From a virus, in IMG/VR virus record IMGVR_UViG_3300037222_000066: a stretch of 64,000 nucleotides of DNA; one strand, 5' to 3'. A program made the position numbers and the translations under genes. The notes under the pieces were generated by a model that made no database searches, was not told the DNA's origin, and saw nothing but the letters and a program-made list of their open reading frames with translations. Numbering within the stretch: the stretch's first letter is position 1; every line of letters begins with the position of its first letter. Below are positions 22,780 through 59,905 of the stretch, in pieces.

Positions 22780-22980
22780 TCGAGCGATTATACCTCCGTG
22801 TAACCCCTTGATATCATTGAACTCCCCACCGGAAGATTAACTCATTGATTTCATTGGTATATTGGTAATCAGGTTGTACCGTTAATATTGTATATTTATA
22901 CGATAATATTAATTGGCCTCTAATAATTTAACACCTTGATACCATTAAGGAAAAGTCCTTAGTATGTTAATATCACGAAA
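22780..22980. promoter_or_regulatory. AT-rich divergent promoter zone
   Basis: GC content drops sharply; three TTGAT(A/T) -35-like boxes on the plus strand (about 22809, 22846, 22935); a perfect TATAAT on the minus strand at 22787-22792 facing the leftward early genes. Confidence 0.35.
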
Positions 22981-23005
22981 ATCGGAAAAGACACAGCCGT
23001 TTGAA

Positions 23006-23050
23006 CCCACCATTTTCCCCACCATTTTCCCCACCATTTTCCCCACCATG
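23006..23050 (+). repeat. iteron array, 3.5 x 12-bp unit ACCATTTTCCCC (direct)
   Basis: Read directly in the sequence: cccaccattttccccaccattttccccaccattttccccaccatg. Confidence 0.9.
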
Positions 23051-23136
23051 TTGCTCTAGGAGGCATCAAGTTGGAAGGAGAACAAAACATGATCAAATAT
23101 TATATATTCAATAATACCAGTCATTACATGATTACA
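23051..23136. promoter_or_regulatory. AT-rich core between inverted iteron arrays (candidate DNA-unwinding element/origin core)
   Basis: aacaaaacatgatcaaatattatatattcaataataccagtcattacatgattacaat flanked by the inverted arrays. Confidence 0.4.
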
Positions 23137-23183
23137 ATAATGGTGGGGAAAATGGTGGGGAAAATGGTGGGGAAAATGGTGGG
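23137..23183 (-). repeat. iteron array, 4 x 12-bp unit in inverted orientation (AAAATGGTGGGG)
   Basis: aatggtggggaaaatggtggggaaaatggtggggaaaatggtggg. Confidence 0.9.
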
Positions 23184-23346
23184 TTTTAGTAGCCCCATCG
23201 TTTGAAAAGGCAAATACTTACATATTAAGCTTTATTACCTACTGAAGGTTGCACGGTGTGACGGTATATATCTTAAAAGGACATATTTGGTTGTGCTCTT
23301 AATATGTAAGTATTACACCATTCCACCCTCAAACCCCGTCCAAAAT

Positions 23347-23368
23347 CCACCATTTTCCCCACCATTTT
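23347..23368 (+). repeat. third iteron site (2 units, direct)
   Basis: ccaccattttccccaccatttt; a half-site-like caccattccaccc lies at about 23306. Confidence 0.8.
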
Positions 23369-23498
23369 GACCCCTAATCTGTTTCATAAGGTAGGATAAA
23401 CCAGGATATCGAGCCATTCCCAGGCAGGAGCGCGCCCGACGCGGCAGGGGCGAGGCCGAAAAACGGCGGCGCGCCGCGTATGGCCACAGGAGACGACC

Positions 23499-23675: not shown

Positions 23676-23721
23676 GTTTGAAGCCCTAGCGCATTACGGT
23701 GCGCTAGATCGTTAAACCCCA

Positions 23722-23735
23722 GTGCTGAGGAGCAC
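23722..23735 (+). promoter_or_regulatory. RBS-containing hairpin GTGCT-GAGG-AGCAC, 3 nt before the ATG
   Basis: 21-nt block AACCC(C)AGTGCTGAGGAGCACA is repeated at 24443-24464. Confidence 0.45.
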
Positions 23736-23738
23736 ACA

Positions 23739-24077
23739 ATGATCGGTTCACAGCTTCCACGTTATAGTCAGCCACGTCCCATAGTGGGACAGGCAGAGAG
23801 CACCAAGCGCCAGCGCACGCTGGAGCACCTTCCAGTGGTCAATCTGGCCTCTGATGCCGTTGCCCCGCACGATCCGTCGATGCTGGAGCTTCTGGGCATT
23901 GATCCGCGTGACCTGACCAACCAGTACATCAAGGCCATTCGGGACTTCATCAAGAATGGCCTTGAGAGCGAGAGCAGCTATAAGACTTTGCTGGCTGTCA
24001 CAGGCAGCAAGTGGCTGCTCACCCGTTATGCCCCAACGGTTGCCCCCAGCTTCCTCAAGCCGGCGAGGCCACTATGA
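23739..24077 (+). CDS. hypothetical early protein (112 aa)
   Basis: First rightward gene, preceded by the GAGG-loop hairpin. Confidence 0.5.
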   Translation: MIGSQLPRYSQPRPIVGQAESTKRQRTLEHLPVVNLASDAVAPHDPSMLELLGIDPRDLTNQYIKAIRDFIKNGLESESSYKTLLAVTGSKWLLTRYAPTVAPSFLKPARPL

Positions 24078-24450
24078 CACAACATAACAGCGGTTGGCGC
24101 AGCCACCGCAGACCAGTCAAATTCACCACAGGTGGCCTTATCGCCACATATTCCCGCAATGAGCTGTCCTCAGCTGGGCTGCTCACTGATCGTCCATACA
24201 ATGGACGGTATAACGGTGACACGCTGGACGCCGAGGACAACTACGTTCCTCGCCAGCCAATCGAGGTAACGTACTCGTAGGCTTATAGCCCTAACGGTTT
24301 AACCGGTTAGTTGCGTCTGGACCGTTAGTTCGATAAGCTGGAATACAGGTAGCTACGCCACTGTTATACCAATGAGCTTGGCGTTGCAGTCCCCGAGGCA
24401 TCATATCCGGACTGATCAGTTGGGGAGCGTTATTCGAGAAGCTGAACCCA

Positions 24451-24464
24451 GTGCTGAGGAGCAC
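24451..24464 (+). promoter_or_regulatory. second copy of the GTGCT-GAGG-AGCAC hairpin
   Basis: Identical 14-mer 3 nt upstream of the ATG at 24468. Confidence 0.45.
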
Positions 24465-24467
24465 AAA

Positions 24468-24782
24468 ATGACGACGATACAAGACATGATCGGCATGCTG
24501 AGTGAAGCAACTAGCCTGAACACCAAGAGCATCAAGAGGCTCTCGGACAATGACAAGAAGATCATTGCTTACATCAGCAGGTTAGAGCGTCGCATACTGG
24601 AGTGCCCTGCGCTTGGCCGTAGTCGCAGGCGTCGTAAACCTGCCGCGCTCGCCCTAATTAAACGAGCCGAACGGCCCTGCTTTGCGAAAAGCCGACATGG
24701 GCTTCATAGAATGCATTTTGGTCGTAAGCACCTAGACCATAATGCACAGACTCGAAACCGTCTAAAAAGGGCCAAGTCATGA
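24468..24782 (+). CDS. hypothetical early protein (105 aa)
   Basis: Start chosen from the hairpin/RBS position rather than the longer ORF call. Confidence 0.45.
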   Translation: MTTIQDMIGMLSEATSLNTKSIKRLSDNDKKIIAYISRLERRILECPALGRSRRRRKPAALALIKRAERPCFAKSRHGLHRMHFGRKHLDHNAQTRNRLKRAKS

Positions 24783-34833: not shown

Positions 34834-35399
34834 CCCCAGATAAACGCACAGGTAACGATGGCAAAGGCTTCTACATTCGCACGTTCACAGGGAAGAAATT
34901 CTACTGGGATAACGTAGATGCCAATGACATTGACATTCATGACATAGCCCACGCCCTTGCTAATAACTGCCGGTGGACAGGGCACGTACGAAAGTTCTAC
35001 TCCGTGGCCCAGCATTGTTTGTATGCTTCATTTGAAGCGCCGCCGGGGTTGGAGCTGTCGGCCCTGCTGCACGATGCATCTGAGGCATATGTGCATGATA
35101 CGCCATCCCCGTTAAAGTGGTATCTGGCGGACCATGACTTCACCGCATTCTCTGACCTGGAGCACACGGTGGACCGAGCAATCTATGACAGGTTCAAGCT
35201 GCCGTACCCGCGGGACCCACGAATTAAAGATATTGATCTAAGGTTGTTGTCCACGGAGAGCCGCGACCTGATGCCGCCTGGTGAGGAACGCATTCACATG
35301 ATTGAGCCTTACCCGTGGCGTATCCATCCAGCTTGTCCAGAGATAGCTGAGAGACAATTTCTTGACCGATTTCGCCACCTAACAGGACAACAAACATGA
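34830..35399 (+). CDS. HD-domain phosphohydrolase, YfbR-like 5-prime-deoxynucleotidase type (190 aa)
   Basis: H...HD...H...D metal-ligand pattern (IHDIAHALANN, LLHDASEAYVHD); ATGA-coupled start. Confidence 0.6.
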   Translation: MTPDKRTGNDGKGFYIRTFTGKKFYWDNVDANDIDIHDIAHALANNCRWTGHVRKFYSVAQHCLYASFEAPPGLELSALLHDASEAYVHDTPSPLKWYLADHDFTAFSDLEHTVDRAIYDRFKLPYPRDPRIKDIDLRLLSTESRDLMPPGEERIHMIEPYPWRIHPACPEIAERQFLDRFRHLTGQQT

Positions 35400-35833
35400 A
35401 TAAGACCGTGCGAAAAAGCGCTAAGCTGGCTGCTGAGCAGCGGCCCACCACCCAAGCCGAGTTGAAGAAAAAGACCCAGCGGGTTCCGCTCGATCTTGTC
35501 TGTCCTGCCGGGGTGGCTCATGAAGCCCAGGCCATGCGGGATGGGTTCATCAAGTATGGGTATGCCTCGTATCTGAACGACGGGGTGGAAATGACAGCCC
35601 GGCACTGTCTTGCCGCTGCCAAGCGCCATATCGAACGGCTGTTGGCCGGCGAGGACAAGGCCCCCGAAGCAAATGGCGCCCACCATGCGGGGCACGCCCG
35701 CGCAATGCTGGGCATCTACTTGGAGTGTATGGAGGCTGGTGTCCTGGTTGACGACCGGCACCCGCGCCACAAGGCTAACCCGTACATCGGTAAGATGTTT
35801 GACCGCATGGCAAAGGAAAACGCAAGTGGCTAA
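35396..35833 (+). CDS. hypothetical protein (145 aa)
   Basis: Co-oriented ORF with ATGA overlap. Confidence 0.45.
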   Translation: MNKTVRKSAKLAAEQRPTTQAELKKKTQRVPLDLVCPAGVAHEAQAMRDGFIKYGYASYLNDGVEMTARHCLAAAKRHIERLLAGEDKAPEANGAHHAGHARAMLGIYLECMEAGVLVDDRHPRHKANPYIGKMFDRMAKENASG

Positions 35834-36497
35834 ACAATTCGCGTGGTCATTCAGCAAGCTCAAGGCGTTCGAGACTTGCCCCAGGAAATTCCATGAGCAG
35901 GACGTGCTCAAGAACTTCCATGAGGGGCAAAGCGAACAGCTGATCTGGGGCAACCAGGTACATCAAACCCTGGCAAAGGTGTTGACCGGCTTGCTGCCAG
36001 CTCTGCCGCCGGAAATGGAGGCCTATCAGAAATACGTGGATATGGTGGCTAAGTTGCCCGGTAAGCTGTATGTCGAGCAGAAATATGCCATCACCAAGGA
36101 CTTTGGGCCCACGACTTATTTCGCGCCGAACTGCTGGTATCGGGGCATTGGCGACGTGGTGAAGATTGAGCGTACACGCGGCGCAATCCTGGACTGGAAG
36201 ACCGGCGCCGTTAAGGTGGACAGCGTGCAGCTGATGTTGATGGCGCTCTGCATATTCGCGCATTTTCCTGTCGTACAGAAAGTCCATACGGGCTTCATAT
36301 GGCTCGCGGAAGATGCGGTCACGATGGAAGAATATGACCGCGAGGATATAGGAGATTGCTGGGCTGGGCTGCTCGGCCGCGTTACCGAGTTGGAAGACGC
36401 CCTCAAGACTGGGGCGTTCCCGCCGAAGCCAAGTGGGCTGTGTCGCAAGTGGTGCCCGGTCACGTCATGCCAGTACCACGGCAAGGGAGGCTTCTGA
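35826..36497 (+). CDS. PD-(D/E)XK nuclease, Cas4/RecB-like, with C-terminal Cys cluster (223 aa, GTG start)
   Basis: GIGDVVK...ILDWKTG (D...D-x-K) core and C-terminal CRKWCPVTSC cluster resembling the Cas4 Fe-S module; AAGGAAA RBS. Confidence 0.5.
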   Translation: MAKQFAWSFSKLKAFETCPRKFHEQDVLKNFHEGQSEQLIWGNQVHQTLAKVLTGLLPALPPEMEAYQKYVDMVAKLPGKLYVEQKYAITKDFGPTTYFAPNCWYRGIGDVVKIERTRGAILDWKTGAVKVDSVQLMLMALCIFAHFPVVQKVHTGFIWLAEDAVTMEEYDREDIGDCWAGLLGRVTELEDALKTGAFPPKPSGLCRKWCPVTSCQYHGKGGF

Positions 36498-59641: not shown

Positions 59642-59905
59642 TCAGAACCCCGGACAGTGCAGGCTGATCCCCAGCCTGTTGCGTGCGGCCAGATCACGGC
59701 CCAGCACGTTGCCGGCTATTCGGCCGTGCTTGTTGCTGGTGGTGTTGTAACGGATAGCGCCGGGCGCGGTGGGCAGGGCATTAGCTCCAAGAGCTTCGCA
59801 CACGTTGGATATGTCGCCCTGGGTGCCACTCGTGGTCACGCACCCGCCAGGGTTAGCCGCGCCCATGAGCAGCACGGACGCTGCTAGGAGGAAATACCGC
59901 TTCAT
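59642..59905 (-). CDS. secreted/lipoprotein-like protein, o-spanin candidate (87 aa)
   Basis: Signal peptide MKRYFLLAASVLLMGAANPGGC with Cys right after the cleavage region; sits in the lysis cassette. Confidence 0.35.
   Translation of the reverse strand: MKRYFLLAASVLLMGAANPGGCVTTSGTQGDISNVCEALGANALPTAPGAIRYNTTSNKHGRIAGNVLGRDLAARNRLGISLHCPGF

Follow-up and report, generated by a model that had tools for sequence, protein, structure and literature searches.

A Shine-Dalgarno hairpin with a covarying stem at gene starts in the non-structural operon of an uncultured phage

Introduction

What is the role of a short inverted repeat that places GAGG between two complementary arms, just upstream of a start codon? 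This question is raised by a stretch of 64,000 nucleotides (nt) of the IMG/VR virus record IMGVR_UViG_3300037222_000066, referred to here as the window, in which such a repeat precedes two small genes and occurs in tandem before a DNA polymerase gene. A sequence-only reading of this DNA had offered three explanations for it, namely a Shine-Dalgarno (SD) sequence presented in a tetraloop, an RNase processing site, or the binding site of a translational regulator. Judged from the comparison of related phages, we show here that the hairpin is selected as a structure, the outer pairs of which covary freely, and that in most cases its sites lie 4-9 nt before a start codon. We weigh the possibility that it is a structured ribosome-binding site (RBS) against other readings, and describe a second, larger hairpin whose loop is antisense to the motif.

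Results

Hairpins in the window

The 10-mer GCTGAGGAGC is present in five copies in the window, compared to 0.11 ± 0.37 expected from 100 dinucleotide-preserving shuffles, none of which reached five. Scanning for GAGG loops closed by a stem of any sequence returned four perfect 5-bp stems, every one on the + strand, and this confirms the motif and its position as first described, at the two small genes (sites 1 and 2) and at the polymerase pair. SD hairpin 1 (23722-23735, + strand; GUGCU-GAGG-AGCAC) is followed by ACA and by the ATG at 23739 of a 112-aa open reading frame (ORF), which lies 6 nt after GGAG, and it is contained in the minimum free energy (MFE) fold. SD hairpin 2 (24451-24464, + strand) is identical, has by itself a stability of -7.2 kcal/mol, and leads via AAA to the ATG at 24468 of a 104-aa ORF, likewise 6 nt after GGAG, with an untranslated gap of 187 nt preceding it. 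Both sites share a 21-nt block, AACCC(C)AGTGCTGAGGAGCACA, to which site 1 adds one more C; this block could be a recombination joint.

The polymerase pair consists of a distal hairpin 3 (32052-32067, + strand; GCUGCU-GAGG-AGCAGU, with five Watson-Crick pairs at 32053-32066 and one G.U), after which no start codon follows, and a proximal hairpin 4 (32072-32085, + strand; CCGCU-GAGG-AGCGG), 19 nt after hairpin 3. Hairpin 4 ends 13 nt before the GTG at 32099 of the N-terminal polymerase fragment, leaving 16 nt of A-rich spacer between GGAG and GTG, while hairpin 3 is 35 nt away from this codon. GTG 32099 is the sole possible polymerase start, since an in-frame TAA lies directly upstream and the synonymous changes in a relative begin there. 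As such, the placement 3 nt before start codons that had been proposed for the motif holds for sites 1 and 2, and not for the polymerase pair. Expressed as SD distances, UGAGGAG, the strongest RBS sequence of this phage, lies 6 nt from ATG 23739 and ATG 24468 and 5 nt from a GTG at 28490, and qualifies as an SD at all three; the copy at 32058, without a following start, and that at 32077, at 16 nt, do not. A TATAAT box (32039-32044) ends 7 nt upstream of hairpin 3, without a usable -35 element. The MFE fold contained the hairpin in all eight small-hairpin contexts tested, with stabilities of roughly -5 to -7 kcal/mol.

The genome-wide search that had been suggested as a check on the motif yielded further occurrences, including the fifth exact copy of GCTGAGGAGC, on the minus strand at 31739-31748, and several cores without arms. 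One armless SD core, CUGAGGAGC (28477-28485, + strand; CTGAGGAGC at 28477), is preceded by AACCC, can form a stem of 2 bp only, and is embedded in the 3' end of the ORF before it; it serves GTG 28490 and is kept in the closest relative, L001. Another, GAGGAGCA (26838-26845, + strand), has no hairpin, is located inside the upstream coding sequence and serves ATG 26850. CTGAGGAGC is present again at 31770, likewise without a 5' arm. Most motif copies, in the window as well as in relatives, have a C/A-rich and G/U-poor AACCC-like tract on their 5' side, e.g. at 23714-23721 (AAACCCC at 23714-23720), 24445-24450, 28470-28476 and 32067-32071, and about 69% of the nucleotides at positions -9 to -6 of the SD hairpin flanks are C or A. 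This tract may keep the SD free of competing pairing.

Selection on the stem

For comparison we used L001, an IMG/VR genome with 85-95% DNA identity to the window, and a graded series of contigs obtained as homologues of the N-terminal polymerase fragment, the alignment of which led to 69 further viral loci and 14 loci in metagenome-assembled genomes of Proteobacteria (Alpha-, Beta- and Gammaproteobacteria) and others. Our test set was not selected for structure: it comprised every + strand UGAGGAG with an ATG or GTG 4-9 nt downstream, whatever its flanks, which gave 60 distinct sites in related phages. Stems of at least 4 bp were found at 21 of these 60 sites, where 3.2 were expected (P = 1.6e-12), and stems of at least 5 bp at 12, where 1.2 were expected. 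Compared to a control with shuffled partners, the excess of pairing is confined to pairs 3, 4 and 5, with none beyond. In the ungapped alignment A2 the covariation score was 0.174, a value that none of 500 shuffles reached (0.095 ± 0.015), with slid controls at 0.04-0.10. Pair 3 occurs as GC, AU, UA, CG and GU, pair 4 as UA, AU, GC, CG, GU and UG, and pair 5 as AU, GC, CG, UA, GU and UG. The only invariant nucleotides are C-U-GAGG-A-G, that is, the SD plus the two nucleotides to which its 3' end is paired. Across the group, 13 stem variants were counted (GTGCT, CTGCT, CCGCT, TTGCT, ATGCT, TTTGCT, TCTGCT, AGCACT, CAAACT, TGAACT, CAACT, GAACT and ACGTT), so that the covariation around a fixed GAGG loop, noted at first for the window, extends much wider than was seen there. 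Wobble pairs, both G.U and U.G, are found in the stems of L001 and L009. Because of these wobbles, and because the motif keeps strictly to one strand and at a fixed distance from the start codon, we regard it as a hairpin in RNA and not as a site in DNA.

The predicted accessibility of these sites depends on which part of the SD is considered. For GAGG, the predicted unpaired probability was 0.67 at hairpin-type sites vs 0.47 at non-hairpin UGAGGAG sites (P = 0.01), whereas the subsequent AG reached 0.18 vs 0.43, and the start codon 0.49 vs 0.50. A lower stem that hides the start codon was considered as well; it exists at site 1 of the window and at the polymerase sites of L001, L011 and L028, and was rejected as a family-wide feature (0.56 vs 0.54). 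Similarly rejected was a role for the UGA of UGAGGAG as an upstream stop codon, which applies to about 20% of the sites only, with both classes alike.

Persistence and loss in relatives

In L001, site 1 is kept as GUGCU/AGCAU with a G.U wobble, while at site 2 the hairpin and its gene are both missing. Aligning 24281-24782 of the window to L001 8851-9085 shows that the site-2 hairpin, the 104-aa ORF and the 187-nt leader together form a cassette, in the place of which L001 carries an unrelated small gene. That sites 1 and 2 have the same 21-nt block, and that this cassette has no counterpart in L001, fits an element that also behaves as a portable gene-start module. L001 has a single polymerase hairpin, UCUGCU-GAGG-AGCAGA (core CUGCU-GAGG-AGCAG), 17 nt from the GTG and inside an extra upstream ORF. 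This AT-rich ORF (L001 15430-15690), positioned between the 83-aa gene and the polymerase, reads through the hairpin (…GCT GAG GAG CAG…) and overlaps the polymerase GTG.

At the same position CUGCU-GAGG-AGCAG is found in L011 and L028, 11 and 9 nt from the start, respectively, and L009 has UUUGCU/AGCAGA at 10 nt. The polymerases of these three are only 59-67% identical to that of the window, and the hairpin is still found 9-11 nt before the ATG, between unrelated flanks. In total, the polymerase hairpin has been kept in five lineages (59-98% protein identity), despite fully diverged flanks; in more distant relatives the polymerase is coupled to the upstream ORF and there is no hairpin. Elsewhere, both divergent operons of L038 have the hairpin at their first genes, and in L023 it precedes the first leftward gene. 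In the relatives the spacing from GGAG to the start is mostly 5-8 nt, with mostly 1-7 nt between stem and start. The idea that hairpins mark genes without translational coupling found no support in these genomes (Fisher P = 0.8).

A large hairpin with an anti-SD loop

The minus-strand copy of the motif turned out to be part of a second structure on the transcribed strand, where it reads UGCUCCUCAG. This large hairpin (31724-31759, + strand; z = -3.5) has a 12-bp stem, GGUGGCACGGUG/CACCGUGCCACC, and a 12-nt loop, ACUGCUCCUCAG, which is the antisense of the motif. Ten nt after it follows a putative SD partner, CUGAGGAGCA (31770-31779, + strand), complementary to the loop over 10 bp, with the ATG of an 83-aa ORF (31792) further downstream; the loop CUCCUCAG is thus followed by a downstream CUGAGGAG. 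A covariance model, R1, gave one hit per genome and always on the + strand, with 23 hits in total, including 31716-31795 in the window. In this alignment 96.5% of cells are paired, 12 of the 13 pairs changed on both sides, and the covariation is 0.685 vs 0.197 for shuffles; these counts lean toward structure, because the model was used to fit the alignment. With a plain MAFFT alignment, RNAalifold already found 9 of the 13 pairs compensated. Related phages have wholly different stems with the same loop, and UGAGGAG follows 10-14 nt after the stem in 9 of 15 members, the others having a shorter or more distant SD-like UGAGG, GGAGGAG or AGGAG. Between loop and SD, 84.7% of helix 2 is paired, and compensatory changes occur at either end of it: L033 pairs CUCUG with CAGAG, and a U-A pair of the window is C-G in L009 and L029. 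Given the lengths of loop and linker, this would suit an H-type pseudoknot hiding the SD of the next ORF. Directly 5' of the stem lies a conserved CAGUGA(A/G)G-like tract. The large hairpin matches no Rfam family, and a sigma-54 promoter within it (TGGCACG-N4-CTGC) was rejected, as the resemblance is limited to the window clade and is absent from L015 and others with different stems.

A comparable structure exists in Cluster K mycobacteriophages, around the single reverse copy of their start-associated sequence (SAS). In Anaya (JF704106, ~59850-59900; L102 34850-34900), a gap without annotation holds a two-tier hairpin on the transcribed strand, in which GCGCGG/CCGCGC is stacked on GGCGUUGACC/GGUCGACGUC and the reverse SAS CCUCCUAUCC forms the apical loop. 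Conservation of this region extends to 135 K phages, and the two stems were both retained in six diverse ones (Anaya and five others; also L103-L108). In DarthP and Amgine the loop has drifted and retains a CCUCCU-like core that resembles the 3' end of 16S rRNA.

Two tRNA-like genes (30364-30437 and 30520-30593, + strand) also carry a sequence complementary to the motif. They score 33 and 39.5 bits with the Rfam tRNA model and have an acceptor, D and T body like that of tRNA-Glu. Their anticodon arm is abnormal, with a G.A mismatch in the stem and an 8-nt loop, C-CCCUCA-G (or 6 nt), in which CCUCAG is complementary to CUGAGG of the motif. ARAGORN called only one of the two, as tRNA-???. The pair is conserved in L001, L009, L011, L014, L016 and L027.

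Genome context

The window, ~64 kb, is essentially the whole genome of an uncultured podovirus-like phage. A + strand operon (23.7-44.3 kb) holds the non-structural genes: small ORFans, an M28-like peptidase, a split family A DNA polymerase, an SNF2 helicase and a DUF927 primase. It is flanked by two minus-strand arms with virion genes (portal/adaptor, terminase, internal virion proteins and tail fibres). Neither megablast nor blastn against 50,697 GenBank phage records gave a relative at the DNA level, and the closest annotated relatives are Rhizobium phages, with 33% primase identity. All motif copies lie within the non-structural operon, those on the + strand spanning 23.7-32.1 kb; the four full hairpins sit in untranslated gaps of 55-187 nt, and the armless cores at 28477 and 26838 within upstream coding sequence.

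No sigma-70 promoter or terminator was found at the sites in scans for either, and no U run follows the small hairpins or the large hairpin of the window. A TTGACA-16-TATATT sequence (31973-32000), matching sigma-70 at 11 of 12 positions, is part of the 83-aa ORF and there codes for a conserved motif, FVDKHGG. Membership of any Rfam 15 family, including C4 antisense RNA and RNA thermometers, was rejected as well: the only hits in the window are the two tRNAs, and permissive scans gave noise far below the gathering threshold.

The polymerase gene (32099-34457) is in two parts, the N-terminal ORF at 32099-33058 and the C-terminal one at 33498-34457, with an HNH endonuclease ORF (33055-33501) in between, and relatives carry other insertions at the same place. 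Adjoining it at 34830-36497 is a cluster, conserved in L002, L009 and L011, that encodes a dGTP diphosphohydrolase N-domain (PF18909), a DUF4406 protein (nucleoside deoxyribosyltransferase-like) and a PD-(D/E)XK nuclease, suggesting that phages of this group modify nucleotides or DNA. An AT-rich divergent control region (22800-23400) separates the leftward from the rightward operon and carries the iteron CCACCATTTTCC, present four times as a direct repeat (~23008-23050), four times inverted (~23143-23190) and twice more (~23348-23370); from its sequence this array looks like an origin, a partition site or an operator array.

Discussion

We give a probability of about one in two to the reading that the motif is a cis-acting structured RBS on the mRNA of the non-structural operon. 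The reason is that its conserved core equals the SD plus the complement of the 3' end of that SD. With most sites located at SD distance, this is also the best supported of the three explanations that the sequence-only reading had offered. How would such a site function? The short inverted repeat would fold the mRNA into a hairpin of 5-6 bp, with GAGG in the tetraloop and the next two SD bases, AG, paired to the upstream CU. A hairpin this weak could keep the GAGG nucleation site exposed, whatever the flanking sequence. The 30S subunit would then nucleate on the loop, after which it melts the stem and completes the pairing with 16S rRNA. The outcome would be a self-contained RBS, insulated from its context and tuned in strength. 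The polymerase copies are conserved as hairpins and are poorly placed for SD function; located 9-17 nt from the start, and in tandem in the window, they may be a standby site, an attenuated site or an operator. Together with the antisense hairpin they leave room for a regulatory layer.

Several points weigh against this reading. When the whole SD is considered, its predicted unpaired probability is no better with a hairpin than without (0.47 vs 0.44). Hairpins 3 and 4 and the L001 copy are 16-35 nt away from the polymerase GTG, which is beyond the ordinary SD range. Furthermore, we infer + strand transcription of these positions from gene order alone, and hairpins in the relatives are not enriched after untranslated gaps (Fisher P = 0.8, in a crude test). 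Orthologous genes in relatives often retain CUGAGGAG without the arms, so the hairpin is facultative and its effect, if any, may be small. Lastly, hairpin-binding proteins classically leave this same signature, a fixed loop and fixed closing pairs combined with outer pairs that are free.

This last point leads to an alternative that we consider unlikely, yet not negligible, in which a translational regulator acting in trans has the hairpin as its operator. The regulator could be a CsrA/RsmA-like protein or, in the way of T4 gp43, the polymerase, and by reading the GAGG loop together with the closing pairs C-G and U-A it would either repress or activate the genes so marked. Selection by a hairpin-binding protein produces this very pattern of fixed apex and freely covarying outer stem, and the polymerase gene keeps its hairpin 9-17 nt from the start, where SD function is doubtful. 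The two hairpins of the tandem pair are spaced by 19 nt, close to the optimum for bridging by a CsrA dimer; a GGA is moreover found at the junction of loop and stem. However, the register of this GGA differs from the CsrA consensus, where it is central in an A(N)GGA-type loop, and the SD with its complement already accounts for every fixed nucleotide. In addition, the hairpin is gained and lost at orthologous genes, which is unusual for an essential operator. Pfam and PHROG searches found no RNA-binding or RNase family among 30 non-structural proteins, which is weak evidence because most of these are ORFans.

The large hairpin raises another possibility, to which we give rather little credence: that the small hairpins are targets of an anti-SD RNA. 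Its loop would pair with GCUGAGGAGC sites and shut genes off, in the manner of P1 c4; it could do so as a cis pseudoknot with the next SD or, once processed, in trans, and the two tRNA-like RNAs might assist. Complementarity of the loop UGCUCCUCAGCA spans 10-13 nt at sites 1-4 and 8-13 nt in relatives; the structure occurs once per genome, always on the + strand and with very strong stem covariation, and the local helix between loop and SD is 84.7% paired with compensation. Each genome that has SD hairpins also carries the large hairpin, a co-occurrence that is confounded by phylogeny. Cluster K mycobacteriophages are alike in combining many forward SAS copies with one antisense copy in a conserved hairpin loop, and the c4 mechanism itself is documented (PMC5320573). 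Conversely, the loop does not follow the third stem pair of the SD hairpins (G-C or A-U), and complementarity is limited to the 8-nt core in L023, L025, L026, L039 and L059; for lack of this mirroring, specific pairing in trans is unsupported. Covariation between motif and anti-motif was accordingly rejected, being absent both in relatives with ACU/AGU stems and in DarthP, the loop of which has changed to CCCUCCUUCCCC while 16/16 forward SAS stay GGGATAGGAGCCC. Nor is there an Rfam C4 match. A full SD/anti-SD RNA circuit is similarly speculative. In it, the large hairpin would mimic the 3' end of 16S rRNA, form a pseudoknot with the next RBS and, after processing, titrate the marked RBSs in trans, thereby timing the translation of early and replication genes; the tRNA-like RNAs may join in, and SAS would be an independent invention.

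Quite improbable, in our view, is a primary role in RNA processing or stability, with the stem-loop blocking 5'-end-dependent RNase E or an exonuclease, or serving as a RegB-like GGAG cleavage site, and its SD content secondary. T4 RegB cleaves GGAG in early SD sequences, and here GGAG straddles the junction of loop and stem. All four window hairpins lie in untranslated gaps, and the TATAAT box 7 nt before hairpin 3 would allow a transcript to begin at the hairpin base. However, this box has no -35 at a usable spacing and its segment is replaced by an ORF in L001, about half of the hairpins in relatives directly follow or overlap the upstream ORF, and no RegB-like protein was detected by Pfam or PHROG among the 30 non-structural proteins. 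Moreover, a processing site does not need the tight 4-9 nt spacing to a start codon. RNase III, which the sequence-only reading had named, can be set aside: with 5-6 bp the stems are too short for it, there is no extended duplex or pairing excess beyond pair 5, and no family-wide lower stem exists. That no structure is selected at all (gene-start cassettes having duplicated, with the palindrome a by-product of GCT...AGC flanking the SD), or that the motif is a double-stranded DNA site for a dimeric protein, is already largely refuted and scarcely credible: sites 1 and 2 are indeed one 21-nt duplicate, sites 3 and 4 a tandem pair, and the core occurs in both orientations, but 13 different complementary stems in independent phages, G.U wobbles and strict strand specificity at SD distance contradict it, a DNA operator would conserve its half-sites instead of covarying them, and the lone inverted copy is accounted for by the large RNA hairpin with its covarying stem.

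If the small hairpin is a context-insulating RBS, as we favour, it would help to explain how mosaic phages keep acquired genes expressible, and it would provide a natural template for the design of portable RBSs. The most novel by-product of this analysis is the conserved anti-SD hairpin, an undescribed conserved RNA structure that is also found at the reverse SAS of Cluster K, and which makes the hypothesis of translational control directly testable.

How does the element compare to known systems? In the thermodynamic model of de Smit and van Duin, local mRNA hairpins reportedly tune the accessibility of the SD, and the E. coli rpsA mRNA presents GGA in hairpin loops. The small hairpins resemble such structured RBSs in showing the SD or GGA in a loop, on a marginal stem that competes with 30S binding. 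The known examples concern single genes, whereas here several genes, and phages throughout a lineage, share one design with covarying stems. CsrA/RsmA sites, where GGA is located in the loop of a short hairpin, often over an SD and often paired, share the short hairpin, the GGA at the apex and the overlap with the SD, as well as a 19-nt spacing at one tandem pair. In our element, however, the loop is GAGG, and GGA straddles loop and closing pair (its A is paired), so that the register of the A(N)GGA hexaloop is unmatched. Like the lambda-type nut/boxB sites of N antitermination and the RNase III sites of T7, the small hairpins are conserved RNA hairpins of phage early transcripts, some of them downstream of promoters. 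However, boxB has a GNRA-like pentaloop on a 5-bp stem, with a boxA nearby and no tie to start codons, while we find a GAGG tetranucleotide loop with an AACCC-like 5' flank that is not a boxA, at start codons, and nut/boxB was rejected on these grounds. The RNase III sites are duplexes of ~20 bp (about two helical turns, often with an internal loop), as opposed to 5-6 bp here, with a loop that is the SD itself.

For the large hairpin, the closest mechanistic precedent is, by analogy, the c4 RNA of P1/P7, which is processed from its own operon transcript and occludes an RBS with its loop (PMC5320573). Both are encoded in the same operon as their target, and both have a loop complementary to a downstream RBS. 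They differ in that the large hairpin has no match to Rfam C4 and is a single hairpin instead of three, with its target 10-14 nt downstream, in the geometry of a pseudoknot.

The nearest described analogue of the small hairpins is the SAS of Cluster K, which is present in 11-19 copies per genome, and for which a translational role has been proposed, its function being unknown (Pope et al. 2011, PMC3203893). The window element is of the same kind: both are short repeats with AGGAG in an asymmetric sequence whose outer parts are symmetric (GGG...CCC in SAS), both are confined to the non-structural part of the genome, and both are found at different gene families in different phages. SAS lies 3-7 nt before start codons in one orientation, and sites 1 and 2 of the window end 3 nt before their ATG, the polymerase copies being excepted. 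In both systems a single reverse copy per genome is not at a gene start, 31739-31748 being that of the window. Because the sequence differs, we do not consider the window element a member of the SAS family: SAS has the 13-bp consensus GGGATAGGAGCCC (verified in Anaya and DarthP), as opposed to NNNCUGAGGAGNNN in the window, where the core is CUGAGGAG with variable arms. Copies are fewer in the window (four hairpins and three armless cores), an ESAS-like 17-bp inverted repeat upstream is absent from it, and the hosts are Proteobacteria instead of Actinobacteria. The antisense hairpin of Cluster K, in turn, has no SD just downstream. SAS is invariant and therefore gives no covariation evidence for a hairpin, whereas the stems of the window lineage vary and covary. 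SAS-type repeats over RBSs have been known since 2011 without a mechanism, and the natural stem covariation in this lineage now shows an RNA hairpin. Should the SD/anti-SD circuit prove true, SAS would finally gain a mechanism.

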